Assembly: GCF_003334305.1 (NCBI RefSeq)
Contig: NZ_QOWS01000023.1
Strand: one strand, 5' to 3'
DNA length: 64,000 nucleotides
Origin: Escherichia coli
GTDB lineage: Bacteria; Pseudomonadota; Gammaproteobacteria; Enterobacterales; Enterobacteriaceae
In this document: positions 2,136 through 35,273 of the stretch, in pieces
Layout of the letters: the number at the start of each line of letters is the position of its first letter
Position numbering within the stretch: the first letter of the stretch is position 1
Notes under the pieces: generated by a model
Databases searched by the model: none
What the model was told of the DNA's origin: nothing
Seen by the model: only the letters and a program-made list of their open reading frames with translations
Translations under genes and position numbers: made by a program

Positions 2136-2753
2136 TTATTCTTCAATCGCTAACAATTGCAATGAACCACGGCTAAAATCCGCCAGCTTTGCGGAAAATT
2201 CAGCCACTTTCGCCGCCGGAAGCGCCACCCGCAGCAGAACGAATGCCTGATAATCACTGTTGATAATTTTGCCGTCACACTGCCCCAGCAACGCTTCAAT
2301 GCCGGTTAACTGATGATATTCACATTGCAAAGTATATTCGGTTAATGGCGTCTTGCGTTGGGTCGTTAGCTGGCGCAGCGCCTGATTCACGCCGCCGCCA
2401 TACGCTTTCACTAACCCACCGGTGCCAAGCAATATGCCGCCGTAGTAGCGCACTACCACAGCGGTAATTTCCCCGACGCCGCTGCCCATTAGCTGGGCGA
2501 GCATCGGTTTACCTGCCGTTCCCGCCGGCTCCCCGTCGTCAGAGAAACCCAGCTGTTGAGAATCATCCGGCGCACCCGCCACCCACGCCACGCAATGGTG
2601 GCGGGCATCGGGGTGTTCTGCCCGCACCGATTCAACAAACGCTTTCGCCGCCTCAACGCCATCGGTATGCGCCAACATCGTTATGAAGCGGCTCTTTTTG
2701 ATCTCTTCAACGACCGTGACCGGTGCCGCAGGAATTAACCAGCTTTCCATCAC
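2136..2753 (-). CDS. yigZ: IMPACT-family protein YigZ
   Basis: 205-aa ORF, 4-bp overlap with pepQ; conserved synteny. Confidence 0.85.
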
Positions 2754-4081
2754 GCCAGTTTCAGATCCCGGGTCATGTTTTCCACGTTGTTTTCGTGGAT
2801 CACCACGTTGTCTTCGATACGAATGCCGCCGAACGGTTTCAGTGCTTCAATTTTCTGCCAGTTGAAGTGCTTGCTGAACTGCCCTTCACGCCACGGTGCC
2901 AGCAGCGATTCAATGAAGTAGATACCCGGTTCGATGGTTAACACCATGCCCGGCTGGAGAATACGGGTGCAGCGCAGGTACGGATATTTTGCCGGTGCCG
3001 CGAGGTGCGTACCGCTATCATCCTGCATAAAACCGGCTACGTCATGCACCTGCAGGCCCAGCGGATGGCCAATACCGTGCGGCATAAACGGTCCGGTGAG
3101 ATCGTTTTCGACCATCGCTTCTTCACTCATATCGGTGATGATTTGATGTTTACGCAGCAGTTTGGCGATGCGCTGATGGAACTGGATGTGGTAATCCACA
3201 TAGCTGACGCCTGCTTTCATGGTAGCGATCAGCGCCAGTTGTTCATCATTTACGTCTTTCACCAGCTGTGCGTAGTCGTTGTCACTTTTTGCCGACCAGG
3301 TACGGGTCAGGTCAGCCGCATAGCCGTTATATTCGGCCCCGGCATCCAGCAGGAAGCTGCGCATCTCTTCCGGTGCCTGGTGGTCCAGTTTGGTGTAATG
3401 CAACACCGCAGCGTGTTCGTTGAGCGCCACAATGTTGCTGTAAGGTACGTCGGTATCACGATGACCGGTCGCGGTCAGATAGGCAATGTTGATATCGAAC
3501 TCGCTCATGCCAGAACGGAACGCTTCTTCTGCCGCGCGATGACCGTTGACCGCCATTTTCTGCGCTTCACGCATACAGGCCAGTTCGTACTCGGTTTTGA
3601 AGGAGCGGTAGTAATGCAGGTAGTCGATCACCCCTTTCGGGTTGATATTGCTGGCCTCAATACCCAGTTGCAGCGCACGTTCCGGCACCGGACCGATATA
3701 ACCGATATTCCCGCGCGCAGCAGGCAGCAGGCTACCAATGCCATCGGCTTTCGGCAGCGCGATCACTTCCACGTCTTCAGTCCAGAAAGAGGTCGGCAGC
3801 GGTTCGACGTTGTGCCAGTAATCAACCGGCAGATAGAACCACAGTTTCGGCTTGTTCACGCCATCCACCAGCAGCCAGCAGTTTGGCACCTGAGTTACCG
3901 GCACCCACGCTTTGAATTGCGGGTTCACTTTAAACGGATAGGGATGATCGTCGAGAAAAACGTTGAACAGTTCGCCGGAGTGAATAAGTAACGCATCCAG
4001 CTTGAAGCGCGCCAGCGCATCGCGAGTCCGTTCCTGTAAGGTAGCTATATGATTTTTATAGAGTGAGGCCAGTGATTCCAT
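2750..4081 (-). CDS. pepQ: Xaa-Pro dipeptidase (prolidase), 443 aa
   Basis: Full-length ORF recognised as PepQ (M24 peptidase). Confidence 0.93.
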
Positions 4082-4228
4082 TTTTTACCCTTCTGTTTTT
4101 TTGACCTTAAGTCTCCGCATCTTAGCACATCGTTCATCCAGAGCGTGATTTCTGCCGAGCGTGATCAGATCGGCATTTCTTTAATCTTTTATTTGCATAT
4201 TTTTAACACAAAATACACACTTCGATGC

Positions 4229-4245
4229 ATCTGGTACGACCAGAT
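4229..4245. promoter_or_regulatory. FadR operator upstream of fadB
   Basis: Perfect palindrome ATCTGGTACGACCAGAT ~25 bp upstream of the fadB ATG; matches the known fadB FadR operator (from memory). Confidence 0.8.
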
Positions 4246-4270
4246 CACCTTGCGGATTCAGGAGACTGAC

Positions 4271-6460
4271 ATGCTTTACAAAGGCGACACCCTGTACCTT
4301 GACTGGCTGGAAGATGGCATTGCCGAACTGGTATTTGATGCCCCAGGTTCAGTTAATAAACTCGACACTGCGACCGTCGCCAGCCTCGGCGAGGCCATCG
4401 GCGTGCTGGAACAGCAATCAGATCTAAAAGGGCTGCTGCTGCGTTCGAACAAAGCAGCCTTTATCGTCGGTGCTGATATCACCGAATTTTTGTCCCTGTT
4501 CCTCGTTCCTGAAGAACAGTTAAGTCAGTGGCTGCACTTTGCCAATAGCGTGTTTAATCGCCTGGAAGATCTGCCGGTGCCGACCATTGCTGCCGTCAAC
4601 GGCTATGCGCTGGGCGGTGGCTGCGAATGCGTGCTGGCGACCGATTATCGTCTGGCGACGCCGGATCTGCGCATCGGTCTGCCGGAAACCAAACTGGGCA
4701 TCATGCCGGGCTTTGGCGGTTCTGTACGTATGCCACGTATGCTGGGCGCTGACAGTGCGCTGGAAATCATTGCCGCCGGTAAAGATGTCGGCGCGGATCA
4801 GGCGCTGAAAATCGGTCTGGTGGATGGCGTAGTCAAAGCAGAAAAACTGGTTGAAGGCGCAAAGGCGGTTTTACGCCAGGCCATTAACGGCGACCTCGAC
4901 TGGAAAGCAAAACGTCAGCCGAAGCTGGAACCACTAAAACTGAGCAAGATTGAAGCCACCATGAGCTTCACCATCGCTAAAGGGATGGTCGCACAAACAG
5001 CGGGGAAACATTATCCGGCCCCCATCACCGCAGTAAAAACCATTGAAGCTGCGGCCCGTTTTGGTCGTGAAGAAGCCTTAAACCTGGAAAACAAAAGTTT
5101 TGTCCCGCTGGCGCATACCAACGAAGCCCGCGCACTGGTCGGCATTTTCCTTAACGATCAATATGTAAAAGGCAAAGCGAAGAAACTCACCAAAGACGTT
5201 GAAACCCCGAAACAGGCCGCGGTGCTGGGTGCAGGCATTATGGGCGGCGGCATCGCTTACCAGTCTGCGTGGAAAGGCGTGCCGGTTGTCATGAAAGATA
5301 TCAACGACAAGTCGTTAACCCTCGGCATGACCGAAGCCGCGAAACTGCTGAACAAGCAGCTTGAGCGCGGCAAGATCGATGGTCTGAAACTGGCTGGCGT
5401 GATCTCCACAATCCACCCAACGCTCGACTACGCCGGGTTTGACCGCGTGGATGTTGTGGTAGAAGCGGTTGTCGAAAACCCAAAAGTGAAAAAAGCCGTA
5501 CTGGCAGAAACCGAGCAGAAAGTACGCCCGAATACCGTGCTGGCGTCTAACACTTCAACCATTCCTATCAGCGAACTGGCCAACGCGCTGGAACGTCCAG
5601 AAAACTTCTGCGGGATGCACTTCTTTAACCCGGTCCACCGAATGCCGTTGGTAGAAATAATTCGCGGCGAGAAAAGCTCCGACGAAACCATCGCGAAAGT
5701 CGTCGCCTGGGCGAGCAAGATGGGCAAAACGCCGATTGTGGTTAACGACTGCCCCGGCTTCTTCGTTAACCGCGTGCTGTTCCCGTATTTCGCCGGTTTC
5801 AGCCAGCTGCTGCGCGACGGCGCGGATTTCCGCAAGATCGACAAAGTGATGGAAAAACAGTTTGGCTGGCCTATGGGTCCGGCATATCTGCTGGATGTCG
5901 TGGGCATTGATACCGCGCATCACGCTCAGGCTGTCATGGCAGCAGGCTTCCCGCAGCGGATGCAGAAAGATTACCGCGATGCCATCGACGCGCTGTTTGA
6001 TGCCAACCGCTTTGGTCAGAAGAACGGCCTCGGTTTCTGGCGTTATAAAGAAGACAGCAAAGGTAAGCCGAAGAAAGAAGAAGACGCCGCCGTTGAAGAC
6101 CTGCTGGCAGAAGTGAGCCAGCCGAAGCGCGATTTCAGCGAAGAAGAGATTATCGCCCGCATGATGATCCCGATGGTCAACGAAGTGGTGCGCTGTCTGG
6201 AGGAAGGCATTATCGCCACTCCGGCGGAAGCGGATATGGCGCTGGTCTACGGCCTGGGCTTCCCTCCGTTCCACGGCGGCGCGTTCCGCTGGCTGGACAC
6301 CCTCGGTAGCGCAAAATACCTCGATATGGCACAGCAATATCAGCACCTCGGCCCGCTGTATGAAGTGCCGGAAGGTCTGCGTAATAAAGCGCGTCATAAC
6401 GAACCGTACTATCCTCCGGTTGAGCCAGCCCGTCCGGTTGGCGACCTGAAAACGGCTTAA
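4271..6460 (+). CDS. fadB: Fatty-acid oxidation complex alpha subunit (enoyl-CoA hydratase / 3-hydroxyacyl-CoA dehydrogenase), 729 aa
   Basis: ORF track 4145-6460; start placed at in-frame ATG 4271 ([16 protein letters not shown]...) downstream of the FadR operator. Confidence 0.95.
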
Positions 6461-7633
<1,173 letters not shown>

Positions 7634-7639
7634 CCACTT

Positions 7640-7760
7640 GCCGGATGCGGCGTGAACGCCTTATCCGGTCTACCGATCCGGCACCAATGTAGGCCTGATA
7701 AGACGCGCCAGCGTCGCATCAGGCATCGTGTGCCGAATGCCGGATGCGACATAGATCTAA
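7640..7760. repeat. REP/BIME cluster (several REP palindromes)
   Basis: GCCGGATGCGGCGTGAACGCCTTATCCGG-type imperfect palindromes between fadA and fre. Confidence 0.8.
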
Positions 7761-7793
7761 ATGCCACTGAATAAAGTTTTAGTTGCCGTTCTT

Positions 7794-7819
7794 CCCGCCT
7801 GTCAGGGGCGGGTTTTTTT
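7794..7819 (+). terminator. Rho-independent terminator of the fadBA operon
   Basis: CCCGCC-TGTCAG-GGGCGG hairpin followed by GTTTTTTTA. Confidence 0.8.
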
Positions 7820-7824
7820 ATATC

Positions 7825-8526
7825 TCAGATAAATGCAAACGCATCGCCAAACAGGCGATCTTCCCGCGCATTACGCTCACTGCAAAACAGATCGCGGGCA
7901 ATTTTCGCCATCTCAAAACGTCCGGCAATATAGATATCATGCTCTGCCAGCGTACCGTGATCCTGCAATACCGCCGTTAACACGGTGCCAGTACGCCCAC
8001 GCCAGCCCGCTTCCGGTTGTTCAACCACCGGCACCACTTGCAGACCAGGATGCTTCAACGAAAGCGCCTCAAGCTCGCAGAGATCATACAGATGCTGCTC
8101 TTCACGCCCGCCCCAGTAAATGGTGATATCACGGTTTGGGTTACGCGCCAACGCTGTCAGCAAAATCGAGCGGGCATAAGAGAACCCGGTGCCGCCCGCA
8201 ATCAAAATCATCGGACGCTCTTCATCATCGCGCAGCCACGCTTCTCCGTGGGGAATATCGACCACGATTTGATGATCTTTGAGGATGCGGTCCATGACTG
8301 CTTTCGCGTAAAGGTTGATTTCAGAAGCGCCAATATGCAGCTCGATAAACCCTTTTTCATCCGGCGTCGAAGCCATTGAGAACGGACGTTTGTCGCGCTC
8401 ATCCATCACTACCATCAAATACTGACCAGCGCGAAAAGAAAAGGCCGCATCTGGCACGATGCGGACACGATATACGGTATCCGTGATAGCTTCTACCGAG
8501 GTCACTTTACAGCTTAAGGTTGTCAT
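7825..8526 (-). CDS. fre: NAD(P)H-flavin reductase, 233 aa
   Basis: ORF track 7825-8559; start placed at the internal ATG giving [14 protein letters not shown]... Confidence 0.9.
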
Positions 8527-8571
8527 GCGCTTTCTCTGTCGGATCGATAAATAGGGCAAAACAAACGCGCA

Positions 8572-10065
8572 TCAGGCGCTTTTACCGTTGTTAAAAATAG
8601 CCAGTTCATCCCAGATGGCGTCAATATGCGCGACAACATCTGGATCTTTTTTGATGGGACGTCCCCATTCACGCTGGGTTTCCCCCGGCCATTTATTCGT
8701 GGCATCCAGCCCCATTTTTGAACCCAGCCCGGAGACAGGCGAGGCAAAATCCAGATAATCAATAGGCGTATTTTCTACCAGAACAGTATCCCGCGCCGGG
8801 TCCATACGGGTGGTAATCGCCCAAATCACATCGTTCCAGTCGCGTGCGTTGACGTCATCATCGCAAACGATCACAAATTTAGTGTACATAAACTGGCGTA
8901 AGAACGACCAGACGCCCATCATGACGCGCTTCGCGTGTCCGGCGTACTGTTTTTTGATCGTCACTACCGCCAGACGATAAGAACAGCCTTCCGGCGGCAG
9001 GTAAAAATCGACAATTTCCGGGAACTGTTTTTGCAGAATCGGCACAAACACTTCGTTCAGTGCGACACCCAGCACCGCGGGTTCATCCGGCGGACGACCA
9101 GTATAGGTGGAGTGGTAAATCGCATCTTCACGCTGGGTAATATGCGTCACGGTAAATACCGGGAAACTATCGACTTCGTTATAGTAACCGGTGTGGTCGC
9201 CATACGGCCCTTCCGGCGCCGTTTCACCTTGTTCGATATACCCTTCCAGCACAATCTCCGCACTGGCGGGCACTTCAAGGTCATTGGAGATACACTTCAC
9301 CACTTCGGTCTTGGTACCGCGCAGCAATCCGGCAAACGCATACTCTGAAAGTGTATCCGGAACGGGGGTGACTGCACCGAGAATCGTGGCGGGATCGGCA
9401 CCCAGCGCCACAGAAACCGGGAAACGTTCGCCCGGATGCGCCGCACACCACTCCTGATAATCCAGCGCGCCGCCGCGATGCGACAGCCAGCGCATAATCA
9501 GTTTGTTTTTACCAATCAGCTGCTGGCGATAAATGCCCAGATTCTGCCGCTCTTTATGCGGGCCGCGCGTCACTGTCAGCCCCCAGGTAATCAGCGGCGC
9601 GGCATCTTCCGGCCAGCAGGTCATAATGGGAATGCGATTGAGATCGACGTCATCGCCAGAGACGATTTTTTGTTGGCAGGGCGCACCACGCAGCCGCTTT
9701 GTCGGCATGTTCAATACTTGCTTAAACTGCGGCAGTTTATCAAACAGGTCGCGGAAACCTTTTGGCGGCTCCGGCTCTTTCAGAAACGCCAATAATTTAC
9801 CAACTTCACGCAGCGCCGAAACATCTTCCTGCCCCATGCCCATCGCCACGCGCTTTGGCGTACCGAACAGGTTGCACAGCACCGGCATTGAGTAGCCTTT
9901 AGGGTTTTCGAACAACAGCGCAGGCCCACCGGCACGCAAAGTGCGGTCAGCAATTTCAGTGATTTCCAGATGCGGATCCACCGGGAGCGTGATACGTTTT
10001 AGCTCACCCTGCTGTTCAAGCAGCGTCAAGAAGTCGCGTAAATCGTTATATTTCATGGCGTCCAT
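8572..10065 (-). CDS. ubiD: 4-hydroxy-3-polyprenylbenzoate decarboxylase, 497 aa
   Basis: Full-length ORF recognised as UbiD. Confidence 0.95.
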
Positions 10066-10186
10066 TGTAGCCTCTTAATCTACGCCCATTATACGGCGTT
10101 CATCTTTGCGATGCTGTAAATTTGTTAAATTAGCGTGAACTCTGACGGTATAACGCAAACCGGGGAATATAATTAACTTAGCGTAA

Positions 10187-11499
<1,313 letters not shown>

Positions 11500-30754: not shown

Positions 30755-31642
30755 ATGGATGCAAAACAAACGCGGCAGGGCGTATTACTCGCTCTTGCCG
30801 CTTATTTTATTTGGGGTATTGCGCCAGCGTACTTCAAGTTGATTTACTACGTGCCCGCCGATGAAATCCTGACGCATCGCGTGATCTGGTCGTTTTTCTT
30901 TATGGTGGTGCTGATGAGTATTTGCCGCCAGTGGTCCTATTTAAAAACGCTGATTCAGACGCCACAGAAAATTTTTATGCTGGCAGTCTCTGCCGTGCTG
31001 ATTGGTGGCAACTGGCTACTGTTTATCTGGGCGGTGAACAATCACCATATGCTGGAAGCGAGCCTTGGTTACTTTATTAACCCGCTGGTGAACATTGTGC
31101 TGGGGATGATTTTCCTCGGCGAGCGATTCCGCCGGATGCAATGGCTGGCGGTGATTCTGGCGATATGTGGCGTGTTAGTCCAGCTGTGGACTTTTGGTTC
31201 GCTACCTATTATCGCGCTGGGACTGGCATTTAGTTTTGCCTTCTACGGTCTGGTACGCAAGAAGATTGCCGTTGAAGCGCAAACCGGCATGTTAATCGAA
31301 ACCATGTGGCTGCTGCCCGTGGCGGCAATTTACCTGTTTGCTATTGCCGACAGCTCAACCAGCCATATGGGGCAAAACCCGATGTCGCTGAATTTACTGC
31401 TGATCGCCGCCGGTATTGTCACTACCGTACCGCTGTTGTGTTTTACCGCCGCTGCCACGCGCTTGCGTCTCTCAACGTTAGGCTTTTTCCAGTACATTGG
31501 CCCGACGCTGATGTTCCTGCTGGCTGTGACGTTTTATGGTGAAAAACCGGGTGCCGATAAGATGGTGACTTTCGCCTTTATTTGGGTGGCGCTGGCAATT
31601 TTTGTTATGGATGCGATTTATACGCAGCGTAGAAAAAGTTAA
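30755..31642 (+). CDS. rarD: DMT-family transporter RarD, 295 aa
   Basis: Full-length polytopic membrane ORF recognised as RarD. Confidence 0.92.
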   Translation: MDAKQTRQGVLLALAAYFIWGIAPAYFKLIYYVPADEILTHRVIWSFFFMVVLMSICRQWSYLKTLIQTPQKIFMLAVSAVLIGGNWLLFIWAVNNHHMLEASLGYFINPLVNIVLGMIFLGERFRRMQWLAVILAICGVLVQLWTFGSLPIIALGLAFSFAFYGLVRKKIAVEAQTGMLIETMWLLPVAAIYLFAIADSSTSHMGQNPMSLNLLLIAAGIVTTVPLLCFTAAATRLRLSTLGFFQYIGPTLMFLLAVTFYGEKPGADKMVTFAFIWVALAIFVMDAIYTQRRKS

Positions 31643-31688
31643 GAATTAACATGGGTAGGCCGTTTAATGAGCCTACCCACTGACTTAT

Positions 31689-32033
31689 TTATCTTTTTTT
31701 GAAAAAAATTAAGATAAGAAAAAGAACAATATTTGTTACAGGAAGTACCCCCAAAACTCCCCAGTACTTACTCCATCCTAGAGACATCGTATATCTACCA
31801 AGGATTTGACAAAACCCAAAACTTAACCCTATACCTATACTTCTTAAATTTAATGTCGTAGTCAGGCTTAAAATAAATAGAACAAGGATGGTAATAGCCC
31901 ACCACAATAACCATGCCTTAACAAAATCAGATTTTTTGCTGTAAGGTTCTTTACCCAAGAACAACTGCCAAAAGTTACCATTCCCCATATAGAATCCATT
32001 CCCCAAGATATTGTTTATAGAATAAAAATACAT
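31689..32033 (-). CDS. Hypothetical small membrane protein (114 aa, 2-3 predicted TM helices); possibly YigG-like
   Basis: ATG-initiated ORF in low-GC DNA with hydrophobic stretches WLLWWAITILVLFILSL and VLGVLPVTNIVLFLILIFF; no family recognised with confidence. Confidence 0.45.
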   Translation of the reverse strand: MYFYSINNILGNGFYMGNGNFWQLFLGKEPYSKKSDFVKAWLLWWAITILVLFILSLTTTLNLRSIGIGLSFGFCQILGRYTMSLGWSKYWGVLGVLPVTNIVLFLILIFFKKR

Positions 32034-32308
32034 TCCAATTATATAATTAAAATATACCCCATCAATAAAAACTTACACACTCTAAATTACTACTGTATAG
32101 TTATCAATGCAAAGACTGCTATATTGCATATATATGCAAACCTCATAATTCAGGTAATATATATATTCAAAACAATTATATATAAAAAACAATGTAAAAA
32201 ATATTCAAATCATCCATCAGAAATATATTCTACCCATCCAGGCTTGAGCATTTATCACGCTTTCAGTTCATAATCTATACATTAACATCATGGTCAATAT
32301 TAATAACT

Positions 32309-32587
32309 TTGAATGATATCAACCTGGCTTTGAGTTTTATTCTGGTTATTAATAATACCTATGTAAATATCAATATTGGAGCAAAAAGAATAAGAGATAC
32401 TGGATGTAAGGCAATCTACTTTGTATTGATTTCATTGGGTTTGACACTTTTTTCTATTATCTCTGCAGCAATTGAAGGGGTGAGATGTGAGTCATTAAGC
32501 GTCCAACTCAACGTGGCATGGATATTATTCACAACAATTATATTATCTGCGATTCCCTCGGCTAAAATGTCGCTGTCAGCACACTAA
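32309..32587 (+). CDS. Questionable small hydrophobic ORF (92 aa, TTG start only)
   Basis: No in-frame ATG near the 5' end; the ORF depends on a TTG start; hydrophobic; AT-rich context. Confidence 0.25.
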   Translation: MNDINLALSFILVINNTYVNINIGAKRIRDTGCKAIYFVLISLGLTLFSIISAAIEGVRCESLSVQLNVAWILFTTIILSAIPSAKMSLSAH

Positions 32588-32611
32588 CTTACTCACAGCG
32601 ACATCGTATAG

Positions 32612-32749
32612 TTACAGCCAGTTCTTACGCTTAAAGTACAGATACGGTGTCAGGCCCGCAAGGATCATAAAGATAATCGCGCCAGGGTAGCCAAAGCTCC
32701 ACTTCAGTTCTGGCATAAACTCAAAGTTCATGCCATAGCTGGAGGCAAT
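32612..32749 (-). pseudogene. Duplicated 3'-end fragment of corA (last ~45 codons), fused upstream to unrelated sequence
   Basis: ~138 bp at 32612-32749 align at ~94% identity (8 mismatches) with the 3' end of intact corA (34322-34459); encodes ...[43 protein letters not shown]. Confidence 0.8.
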
Positions 32750-32938
32750 CCGCGTAGGAAAAAGTTTCCTAATCGGTAAATTCAACATTTTGTTATTAAC
32801 AATGAGCAAGACCAATCATTAACGAGGTTCTCTTCAGAGATGTAATGAAAAAATGTGAAATGTACTTCTTTTTTAAATATTTTTTTACCCTAGCATTTGT
32901 TCTCGAATTGACATTGAGCTTAAATATAACCAAGGCAA

Positions 32939-33793
32939 ATGCAAATGAATAACATATTACTTCCGCCAATTAATATTCCCTGTACACTTTTCGAAACTAT
33001 TAGTTTATTCGATGATTTTTCTGCTGATGATATGCAATATGGTGATATGGTAGAACAAGACTTTCTCTCACTCGGCCTAAGCGATATCTCAGCAAAAGTT
33101 GATCCTTACAGACTTATTAAATACCATTTCCCTGGCCCAGGTTCTATTAATGTTGCTTTTAGTGCCTCAAGTTCCGGAACAAAAATATCACAACGTGAAT
33201 GCACTGATATTTTATTTGCAGAAATGAAAGAACTAGCAAAAATGTTTTCCTTTTTTGGACAAAATAAAACACTTATCGAAGATCTGATTGAACATTTTAG
33301 ATATAGAAATGGCAGCAATTTTCATAGCCAACAATTAAATTTATCTTTTCATGAAAAAATAAATAAATATGGTTATAATAGTCCAATACGAATAATCAAA
33401 GAATGTATCGAAAATGGCATTAATTCAACTCCCTCGACAGGATACCAACCTCTTATCCTGCAAAGCATTAAAACCAAATTACTTTCATCAAGACTAAATA
33501 AATTTAATGACTTCGAGGACAGTTTTAATGGCTTAGGAATCAGTGTTCATGATATTTCAGCTCAAAAAATATCTCTTTTAAGTTTTCAAAACTACGCTAT
33601 AGGATGGAGTGCAACAATTCATTTTGTAGCACAGGACCACTTCGGTCTTGATGTAACTGATATCAAAAACAAGACTTACAGCAAATATAGATTTTTTCGC
33701 ATATGGTTCTTTTTACAACGGCATAAAGACTTTGCTTTCAAACCTTTTTTCACCAATTTTAACACTATCGAAAGAATCGAAAATTATCTATGA
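32939..33793 (+). CDS. Hypothetical cytoplasmic protein, 284 aa, acidic N-terminus; first gene of an overlapping two-gene cassette
   Basis: ATG-initiated ORF in a low-GC islet; no signal peptide; stop overlaps the next start (ATGA); family not identifiable without a search. Confidence 0.65.
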   Translation: MQMNNILLPPINIPCTLFETISLFDDFSADDMQYGDMVEQDFLSLGLSDISAKVDPYRLIKYHFPGPGSINVAFSASSSGTKISQRECTDILFAEMKELAKMFSFFGQNKTLIEDLIEHFRYRNGSNFHSQQLNLSFHEKINKYGYNSPIRIIKECIENGINSTPSTGYQPLILQSIKTKLLSSRLNKFNDFEDSFNGLGISVHDISAQKISLLSFQNYAIGWSATIHFVAQDHFGLDVTDIKNKTYSKYRFFRIWFFLQRHKDFAFKPFFTNFNTIERIENYL

Positions 33794-34269
33794 AAAGCAA
33801 ACTCCAGAAAATTATATTATGTTTATTTCTTCTATGCTGCATCTATAATTTATGGACATTGCGTCCTGTACAGATTTTGTATACATACTCTGATGCTGGC
33901 AATTCAGTCTTTCTGGTCGTTGATCATCTGCCATGGACTGACAGCGATAAAATAAATTGGTATCTGAAGCATCAGAATGAAATTAAAAATCAACATCCCC
34001 TACCAGAAGGTAGTTGGCATACCTGGTATGTCATTGATATCGGTAATGGCTTCACTGACTATAAAAAATATATCGAAGGGCCGTATGAAGATCTCTACTG
34101 TTTCCCGACAATTAAGAGCAATGATAATTGCATCGTGAAAAATTACTTAATGGTTATTAATGAATACCCTTATCGTAACACTCATATTGGTATTAACGAT
34201 TTTACTGAGTATCAATTAACACAAGAAAATAAAATAGAGCGAGTTTTCAATCCGCATGACTTTAAATAA
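33790..34269 (+). CDS. Hypothetical exported or membrane-anchored protein, 159 aa; second gene of the cassette
   Basis: N-terminal hydrophobic segment MKSKLQKIILCLFLLCCIYNLWTL; start overlaps the upstream stop by 4 bp. Confidence 0.6.
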   Translation: MKSKLQKIILCLFLLCCIYNLWTLRPVQILYTYSDAGNSVFLVVDHLPWTDSDKINWYLKHQNEIKNQHPLPEGSWHTWYVIDIGNGFTDYKKYIEGPYEDLYCFPTIKSNDNCIVKNYLMVINEYPYRNTHIGINDFTEYQLTQENKIERVFNPHDFK

Positions 34270-34322
34270 GACAATTTTTAGAAATAAGCCGGATAAAAAA
34301 ATAGCTTTATCCGGCACTCATA

Positions 34323-35273
34323 TTACAGCCAGTTCTTGCGCTTAAAGTACAGATACGGTGCCAGGCCCGCGAGGATCATAAAGATAATCGCGCCTGGGTA
34401 GCCGAAACTCCACTTCAGTTCTGGCATAAACTCAAAGTTCATCCCATAGCTGGAAGCAACGAGCGTCGGCGGCAGGAATACCACGGATACCACCGAGAAG
34501 ATTTTGATGATGCGGTTCTGCTCGATGTTGATAAAGCCCATCGCCGCCTGCATCAGGAAGTTCACCTTCTGGAACAGGGATTCGTTATGCGGCAGCAGGG
34601 ATTCGATATCTCGCAGGATTTCACGCGCCTGCTCCAGTTGCCCACCCGGTAAACGCGCCTTGCGTACCAGGAAGTTGAGCGCACGCTGGGTATCCATCAG
34701 ACACAGGCGAACTTTCCAGCCGATATCTTCCAGTTCCGCCAGCGTGGAGAGCGCCTCATCGTACTCATCGCCCTGATGCCCTTCCATAATTACCCGGCTC
34801 AACTGCTCCAGATCGCTGTAGATATTTTCAATTTCATCTGCCAGCTGTTCGATTTTGGTTTCGAACAGATCCAACAGCAGCTCGTAGGCGTTACCGTCCA
34901 CCATTGACTGGCTACGGGCGCGCATACGATACAGACGGAATGCAGGCAGTTCACGCTCACGCAGAGTAAACAGACGACCATCACGGATGGTAAATGCCAC
35001 AGTGGAGTTACCGGCGTGATCTTCCGCATCTTCAAAGAAGAAGAAGGAGTGAATATGCAGGCCGTCGTCGTCTTCAAAGAAACGTGCCGATGCTTCGATG
35101 TCTTCCAGTTCCGGGCGGGTTGCCAGGCTCTGGCCAAGTTCAGATTGTACGCGCAGTCGCTCGTCGTCGTCCGGTTCGACAAGATCAATCCATACTGCAT
35201 TTACAAGGGGTTGTGACTCTTCGACTTCCAGCCGGGTCAGTCGGTTATTTTCCAGTTGAAATGCGCTCAGCAT
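34323..35273 (-). CDS. corA: Magnesium/cobalt transport protein CorA, 316 aa
   Basis: ORF track 34323-35288; start at 35273 ([15 protein letters not shown]...); C-terminal [10 protein letters not shown] motif. Confidence 0.95.

Follow-up and report, generated by a model that had tools for sequence, protein, structure and literature searches.

A corA'/rarD' junction suggests a duplication and recombination origin for the repeat around an effector-immunity cassette in Escherichia coli

In a 64,000-nt stretch of Escherichia coli DNA (contig NZ_QOWS01000023.1 of assembly GCF_003334305.1; hereafter the window, meaning this whole stretch), the 3' end of corA occurs twice in the same orientation and brackets a cassette of two genes, assigned to an effector and its immunity protein. 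We find that the repeat is probably a recombination scar, in which a join at microhomology together with homologous exchange would have stacked two occupants of the slot between rarD and corA without a dedicated recombinase. An earlier reading of the same letters, the original prediction, had taken the structure for a decayed or minimal integrative islet. The locus reads as two units in tandem, the first made of rarD, two small genes and a corA' stub, the second of a rarD' stub, effector, immunity gene, terminator and intact corA. Its features are as follows.

30755-31642, plus strand: rarD, the left core gene of the slot (open reading frame list; annotation of the identical strain A7 by the NCBI Prokaryotic Genome Annotation Pipeline, PGAP; 15-mer search).
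31643-32611, no strand assigned: left occupant of the slot, 32% GC, with two small hypothetical genes; stands where K-12 has yigG-yigF.
32612-32748, minus strand: corA' fragment, a pseudogene holding the last 45 corA codons and the stop, with 8 mismatches to 34323-34459.
32749-32775 (27 nt), plus strand: novel join, consisting of the microhomology, the rarD' tail and 9 nt more.
32776-32944, plus strand: region upstream of the effector; homology with cassette-only (B2-type) strains begins at 32776.
32945-33793, plus strand: effector gene, 282 aa, of the YPO3983 / TIGR03034 / DUF3289 family.
33790-34269, plus strand: immunity gene, 159 aa, DUF943; its start overlaps the effector stop (ATGA).
34288-34315, minus strand: GC-rich terminator-like hairpin with a T run, placed where the immunity gene and corA converge.
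34323-35273, minus strand: intact corA (open reading frame list and PGAP), with the second repeat copy as its 3' 137 bp (34323-34459).

Alignment of the two copies gives a 137-bp direct repeat (32612-32748 against 34323-34459) with 8 mismatches, corresponding to 94.2% identity. The repeat of ~138 bp with 8 mismatches that had been described is therefore real and hardly shorter or weaker than claimed, but its second interval, given as 34322-34459, was off by 1 nt and the true length is 137 bp. When compared with corA alleles reading CCAGCGTCGG, the repeat extends to 32758, over 147 bp at 89-91%. The fragment is an N-terminally truncated copy that matches positions 273-320 of the CorA model TIGR00383 (E 1.3e-22) and is labelled a pseudogene by PGAP in strain A7, the sequence of which equals the window over the 3.1 kb compared (31500-34600); the intact protein, WP_000947159.1, is annotated in every E. 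coli chromosomal locus fetched. Chance similarity and assembly artefact were both rejected as explanations of the repeat, the structure recurring in 1710 independent complete genomes. Between the copies (32750-34322; 1.57 kb) the GC content is 32.4%, against 53% in corA, and both the open reading frame list and the PGAP annotation of A7 place two real genes there (32945-33793 and 33790-34269) and no recombinase. This agrees with the earlier picture of AT-rich, two-gene DNA from which any recombinase is missing, except that the low-GC tract is really 2.7 kb long (31643-34322) and lies on either side of the corA' fragment.

The fragment had also been thought to be fused to unrelated sequence; what it adjoins is in fact 15 nt left over from the 3' end of rarD. 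The last 14 coding nucleotides of rarD (31627-31640, GCGTAGAAAAAGTT) recur at the islet junction, where the rarD' tail GCGTAGGAAAAAGTT at 32752-32766 matches this stretch of the window's own rarD with one G added. The join contains a degenerate microhomology (32750-32755, CAGCGT now CCGCGT), and corA and rarD both have CAGCGT precisely at this point. With one edit allowed, the rarD' 15-mer is found in the 64-kb window only at the end of rarD and at the junction. Against the rarD end, the junction's score was equalled by just 1 in 20000 shuffles of the 27-mer and by none of ~5255 further natural 27-mers taken from the low-GC tract. Because the rarD tail and the shared CAGCGT stand at the join, the junction reads corA'/rarD' head to tail; the order at 32749-32766, with corA' on the minus strand and then the rarD' tail on the plus strand, is that of a duplication in Salmonella houtenae described below. 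By its sequence, then, the join is the novel junction of a tandem duplication or of a Campbell-type integration of a circularised rarD-corA interval.

Several observations weigh against this reading. The rarD' tail is merely 15 nt long and A-rich, and a looser shuffle test, using local alignment of 160 x 160 nt, gave a p of about 0.05. The two units do not share their full length, the shared parts being 137 bp of corA and about 15 nt of rarD, and their interiors differ. In a set of 5426 complete E. coli genomes, to which all population counts given here refer, no genome covered at least 80% of a cassette-corA'-cassette tandem used as query, and no clean rarD-cassette arrangement was present; the single match had about 140 extra bases between the matched pieces and was read, without inspection, as the yigG' remnant type introduced below. 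A donor with a clean rarD-effector-immunity-corA arrangement would be expected to have a rarD ending in ...CGTAG(G)AAAAAGTT, and a metagenome search for such a donor tail with the pattern AGCGYAG N0-1 AAAAAGTTTCC gave chance matches only: 104 stretches fit the pattern, none of which encodes RarD, CorA, the effector or the immunity protein. On balance, the evidence for a rarD tail at the junction appears good but not overwhelming.

The rarD-corA interval is a variable slot, occupied by yigG-yigF, by two unnamed small genes or by the DUF3289/DUF943 effector-immunity pair; a literature search on the locus returned no account of its variation. The cassette is carried by 2633 of the 5426 genomes and the corA'-cassette junction by 1710 of them (96.7-100% identity among the matches listed), with the window's full arrangement in 1408 of the latter. 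By subtraction, about 300 junction genomes should carry yigG-yigF in place of the small-gene pair on the left side of the fragment, an order confirmed in E. coli B/BL21, N9 and Z30. About 930 genomes are cassette-only (88-92% identity) and lack both the fragment and yigGF, examples being CFT073, Z0117EC0051 and GMF054. Since these genomes and Salmonella diarizonae hold the cassette without the fragment, it is an allelic occupant of the slot. Cassette-free genomes that were sampled are mostly K-12-like with yigG-yigF, and about two dozen genomes have the two small genes, a single corA end and no cassette. The foreign-looking DNA inside the repeat is thus found in part of E. coli only, as had been anticipated, and empty sites with a single corA 3' end do exist; with the junction in 1710 of 5426 genomes, an identical duplication in all E. 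coli is not what is seen.

The two small genes almost always occur together with the fragment and cassette (in 1408 genomes, while about 24 have them alone), and both the junction and the cassette length are the same in all fragment-type matches listed. Either the two small genes or yigG-yigF can lie to the left of this same junction, which points to a single origin of the junction, apparently followed by swapping of the left unit. Left of 32776, cassette-only genomes have the rarD-yigG spacer of K-12 followed by the initial ~87 bp of yigG, a remnant from which it follows that their ancestor had yigG beside the cassette. We infer that the cassette-only type is likely to have come from an E. 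coli B-type arrangement by a deletion from yigG +87 to 32775, which would also remove the repeat and so stabilise the cassette.

Salmonella offers a parallel to these arrangements. S. diarizonae has rarD, effector, immunity gene and corA with no stub, and S. houtenae ATCC BAA-1581 (4190-8408) carries a 2110-bp tandem duplication (97% identity) of the interval from the rarD 3' end to the corA 3' end, in the order rarD-E1-I1-corA'(285 bp)/rarD'(210 bp)-E2-I2-corA, where E and I denote effector and immunity genes. This duplication is independent of the E. coli structure and has its own corA'/rarD' join. The S. houtenae locus looks like an effector-immunity pair that was duplicated and then diversified. 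Its two copies differ in patches, mainly at the centre of the effector (about residues 130-180) and in a few immunity residues.

When one genome from each species was searched with the effector protein, 8 loci only were recovered, with the cassette at corA solely in S. diarizonae, and the suggestion that related islets might carry an integrase was not borne out, as none of the 8 shows an integrase-linked corA site. Homologues in Enterobacter, Huaxiibacter, Trabulsiella and Serratia lie away from corA, have no corA fragment and in some cases form arrays, so that the DUF3289/DUF943 family stacks in tandem outside corA in other genera too. The array of Trabulsiella guamensis (5965-10430) comprises an effector-immunity pair, an effector fragment, two immunity-like genes and a second effector-immunity pair. 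Two of the 8 loci are contigs assigned to 'Alistipes' (CASFSC010000051.1) and 'Clostridium' (USQA01000181.1) with proteins 98-100% identical to the E. coli locus; they look like E. coli binning contamination in the species-representative set.

Mobile elements were considered as the vehicle of the cassette. When a phage collection was searched with the corA 3' end, three Salmonella records were found (two of them bacterial contigs), and no attP was recognised among them. A second copy of corA-ysgD with the 5' part of yigE is present on IncHI1-type plasmids (R27, NC_002305, 5001-6300; pHCM1; about 60 other plasmid records). This mobile corA unit retains 54-98 bp of the right end of the cassette, comprising the hairpin and the 3' end of the DUF943 gene, downstream of corA and was therefore captured from a cassette-type chromosome. 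A plasmid or phage vehicle was rejected, the plasmids carrying an insertion sequence 1 (IS1) composite with corA but without the cassette and the phage records being from Salmonella and mostly bacterial contigs. The corA-ysgD-yigE' copy is also chromosomal in Z142-1 and 23CRST021 (about 2450-4260), near integrase or trbL genes. Both chromosomal copies are flanked by IS1, which does not appear in the incomplete annotation of the plasmids.

These comparisons bear on the integrative islet, an element with an integrase and with the corA 3' end as its attP that would later have been stripped to its two-gene cargo. It would account for a likeness to e14 and phage 21 in icd; the 137-bp repeat with 8 mismatches and its polymorphism are real, and the intact corA 3' end and the terminator hairpin travel with the cassette, the hairpin-bearing flank just downstream of corA being common to the cassette-only locus L004, E. 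coli B, O157 and the IS1-borne corA copies. That an incoming piece supplied a replacement 3' end is thus a possible reading, but the integrative element is not supported. The locus has no recombinase and an insert of constant length among the fragment-type genomes listed, and its far end carries a rarD remnant, so that the 'element' is a copy of a chromosomal interval and not an attP. Moreover, the cassette sits in the same slot without the repeat in the cassette-only E. coli and S. diarizonae, a plain tandem duplication yields a like stub in S. houtenae, the corA sequences on phages and plasmids led to no attP and to an IS1 composite, respectively, and the homologues of other genera are not at corA. 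With this balance of evidence, we hold a decayed integrative islet to be very unlikely.

The differences between the two copies are not in themselves a sign of foreign origin. Three of the 8 differences in the window occur also in the intact corA of other strains (e.g. K-12), four are GC-to-AT transitions private to the fragment, one of which is an amino-acid replacement, and the last is at column 133. In eight fragments that were sampled, the left and central columns vary by lineage, using alleles also known from intact corA, and all eight have G at column 133 and an identical join. This fits one founding event that would have been followed by conversion or exchange, only the edge of homology keeping the old state. 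The argument that the divergence reveals a different source lineage is consequently weak, since part of it is alleles of other intact corA genes, part is private GC-to-AT change, and fragments vary by lineage. An intact corA with the window's fragment allele was not found in the 5426 genomes, the best match to a chimeric query of fragment and upstream corA sequence reaching 97.5%.

The same changes speak to the idea that the corA' stub is kept for a function, as a small membrane peptide acting on CorA or as a 3' element for the left-hand genes. A 67-codon open reading frame that begins with TTG runs across the stub and encodes the GMN motif and the last transmembrane helix, and the stub persists in 1710 genomes. 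However, the N-terminus of this reading frame is derived from the junction, the fragment has the four private transitions with their one replacement, PGAP calls it a pseudogene, and it is gone, at no evident cost, from cassette-only strains and from the deletion derivatives of O157. We regard a retained function as extremely improbable.

Those deletion derivatives come from O157:H7, in which most genomes sampled have the fragment and cassette and a few lack the cassette (Z1835, Z1836, AC-3, AC-5, 7784 and others). Outside the repeat, Z1835 equals the cassette-bearing PV15-279, and its single corA end has the fragment alleles at positions 6 and 16 and the intact-copy alleles from 121 on, placing the crossover somewhere within a 104-bp identical block. 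This chimeric end is the product that would be expected of a homologous crossover between the repeats, though a fixed core site inside the block would also fit, and Z1835 is the one clear deletion derivative; the single corA end of SMN197SH3 is compatible with the same origin. Another O157:H7 assembly, TR01, has 95.9% identity over the locus, a K-12-type rarD allele and K-12-type flank bases beside both corA copies, and is either a local mosaic or an assembly problem.

A comparison of the window with the cassette-only locus L004, as identity per 100 bp, reveals that the divergence of the cassette is uneven. The upstream region and most of the effector gene (32776-33675) are 77-95% identical per 100 bp, about 88% overall, whereas from about 33676 on the immunity gene, hairpin and corA are 96-100% identical. 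Because the effector half is about 12% diverged, roughly a between-species level, and the immunity gene and corA 0-4%, the cassette has a mosaic history, and this counts as a further point against the recombination-scar reading. The corA-side half may have been homogenised across E. coli by homologous exchange, and the effector half, locked to a non-homologous left flank, would keep its old divergence. The effector alleles of the fragment-type and cassette-only strains (84% amino-acid identity) are paired with an almost identical immunity gene.

The uneven divergence also lends some weight to a one-step foreign import, in which rarD-effector-immunity-corA of another species would have entered by a homologous crossover in or beyond corA and an illegitimate join of corA to the rarD tail, leaving the fragment as the corA end of the recipient and the intact end as that of the donor. 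It is a sub-variant of the recombination scar that fixes the order of events. In addition to the effector half, such an import would be in line with columns 73, 85 and 121, at which the window fragment reads A/G/G as K-12 corA does and the intact copy T/A/C as cassette-only strains do, and the arrangement that it requires exists in Salmonella. Against this, no donor was found, the columns are inconsistent (the O157 fragment has T/A at 73 and 85, and the intact copy of N9 is K-12-like), and the rarD tail fits the rarD allele of the window's own haplotype, not a foreign one. We consider such an import unlikely, though less so than the integrative islet.

For the recombination scar in its general form, the following course may be proposed. 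An illegitimate join would have formed at the 6-bp CAGCGT, linking a point in corA some 140 nt before its end with the final rarD codons, either as the novel join of a tandem duplication or by a single Campbell-type crossover of a circularised copy of the interval. Combined with homologous exchange, this would have left different cargo in the two units, and the stack would have been made once. Either the effector-immunity unit was duplicated in situ, as in S. houtenae, and the left copy was then replaced, or rarD-effector-immunity-corA was imported in one step into a recipient of the yigGF or small-gene type; the resulting structure would be identical. Thereafter, the 137-bp corA repeats would act as plain homology, exchanging with each other and with incoming alleles and permitting a swap of the left occupant and deletion of the cassette by a RecA-type crossover. 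We infer the order of these events and the dependence on RecA.

The left occupant offers few clues of its own. Its genes are an open reading frame of 99-114 aa on the minus strand (31689-31988/32033), which is membrane-like, and one of 92 aa on the plus strand (32309-32587), and a hairpin of its own, with arms at 32568-32576 and 32595-32603, closes the unit shortly downstream of the corA' stop. The two small genes have no significant similarity to YigG or YigF, no PADLOC match and no NCBIfam model above its cut-off, the sole NCBIfam match falling far below it (PRK11371, E 2.6e-4, 21 bits against 217).

Judged from sequence and fold comparisons, the cassette is an orphan effector-immunity pair of a type VI secretion system (T6SS) and belongs to the published DUF3289/DUF943 family. 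The effector matches TIGR03034 (E 9e-129, 428.7 bits against a cut-off of 156) and, over residues 12-280, PF11692 (E 5.8e-82), i.e. a full-length DUF3289 domain; the immunity protein matches PF06092 (E 1.7e-26). A profile of the effector and seven relatives matches PDB entries 9jdi and 9jg8, each titled 'DUF3289 family protein', for which a literature search by PDB code returned nothing relevant. In Foldseek, the best and sole significant fold match of the AlphaFold model of the effector is 9jdi_A (E 2e-8, probability 1.0, TM score 0.42-0.49), from the T6SS effector-immunity complex of the BtpeA C-terminal domain (CTD) with BtpiA of Bacteroides fragilis. The DUF3289 protein of Yersinia is toxic in the E. 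coli periplasm, rounds the cells and is neutralised by its DUF943 partner, and its authors proposed a colicin-M-like activity (PMC11148199); T6SS-dependent delivery is reported for an orphan DUF3289 effector in Aeromonas (PMC12135965). The effector of the window is most likely a periplasm-acting, reportedly colicin-M-like toxin that would be delivered by the T6SS, its own delivery and toxicity following by extension. Two points weigh against this assignment: the confidence of the effector model is just moderate (mean predicted local distance difference test, pLDDT, of 68), and its likeness to the colicin-M-like bacteriocin PaeM (4g76) is not significant (E 1.7). The immunity protein has a hydrophobic N-terminus (KIILCLFLLCCIYNLW), in agreement with the topology reported in PMC11148199, and is most likely membrane-anchored and periplasmic. 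A promoter scan found sites no more numerous than in shuffled controls. The DUF943 gene of the window is 4 codons shorter than in other lineages, ending in ...HDFK and a stop as against ...HDFKKDNF and a stop, through one change of AAA to TAA (34258-34272).

In the B/BL21 laboratory lineage (E. coli B, BL21(DE3), REL606, C41 and C43) the locus reads yigG(pseudo)-yigF-corA'-DUF3289-DUF943-corA. BL21 is also the host in which the Yersinia DUF3289 effector proved toxic (PMC11148199). Its resident DUF943 protein evidently gave no protection, which suggests that immunity is allele-specific, and the presence of the cassette bears on the use of BL21 as a 'naive' host in toxin assays.

A repeat of a gene 3' end around low-GC DNA is usually read as the footprint of an integrase, and the present locus indicates that mere duplication and recombination of a chromosomal interval can produce it; what is diagnostic of such an origin is a stub, at the join, from the gene on the other flank. 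By these results, about half of sequenced E. coli, O157:H7, CFT073 and B/BL21 among them, have a T6SS effector-immunity pair of a reportedly colicin-M-like kind, and the loss of the cassette through its repeats in natural O157:H7 bears on competition between strains. Tentatively, and with considerable doubt, the rarD-corA gap may be an instance of a general mechanism that needs no recombinase, in which the flanking-gene stubs left by microhomology-mediated duplication would serve as homology arms for stacking, swapping and deleting effector-immunity cassettes. If so, toxin and immunity would have a reversible on/off state at the level of the population, and the effector half, tied to one flank type, could survive as an ancient polymorphism, possibly trans-species, as the 12% as opposed to 0-4% divergence would suggest.

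Among known systems, e14 and phage 21 integrate into the 3' end of icd and leave an icdC stub; they encode an integrase and excisionase and carry attP. The window resembles them in that over 100 bp of a housekeeping gene's 3' end stand as a direct repeat around foreign DNA, with an intact gene and a diverged stub, and differs in that it has no recombinase, its far end is a rarD remnant and loss would occur by crossover anywhere within the repeat. Stacking by displacement is known for T6SS, Rhs and contact-dependent inhibition (CDI) modules, as in the orphan immunity arrays of the Vibrio cholerae auxiliary clusters and in orphan rhs-CT and cdiA-CT modules. There, as here, new and old cargo stand in tandem, with a truncated 3' remnant of the gene upstream at the boundary that later acts as homology for rearrangement; the repeated piece in those systems is part of the toxin gene itself, whereas in the window the stubs come from two housekeeping genes, corA and rarD, and what was displaced is no toxin module. 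Microhomology-mediated tandem duplications of enterobacteria have a novel join point, and the window shares with them a distal end, in corA, joined head to tail to the rarD end at 6 bp; S. houtenae presents this in unmodified form. Unlike a plain tandem duplication, the E. coli units share no interiors, and only the ends of 137 bp and 15 nt betray the duplication.

As for the cargo, the closest likeness is to the DUF3289/DUF943 pairs of Yersinia pseudotuberculosis (T6EC1-T6IC1; PMC11148199), in which a full-length DUF3289 gene is likewise followed by an overlapping gene for an N-terminally anchored DUF943 protein, although the Yersinia effector is a PAAR fusion and that of the window has no PAAR or other delivery domain. 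The orphan DUF3289 effector of Aeromonas jandaei (PMC12135965) is similar in that the window pair also lies away from T6SS genes, and the BtpeA CTD-BtpiA complex of Bacteroides fragilis (PDB 9jdi) in that it is the best fold match of the effector model; the immunity proteins of the Aeromonas and Bacteroides systems are not reported as DUF943, unlike that of the window. The locus is therefore no new kind of system, its cargo family being published and its type of rearrangement known, and what it adds to these is the diagnostic rarD stub, a natural O157:H7 deletion product and the parallel in Salmonella.

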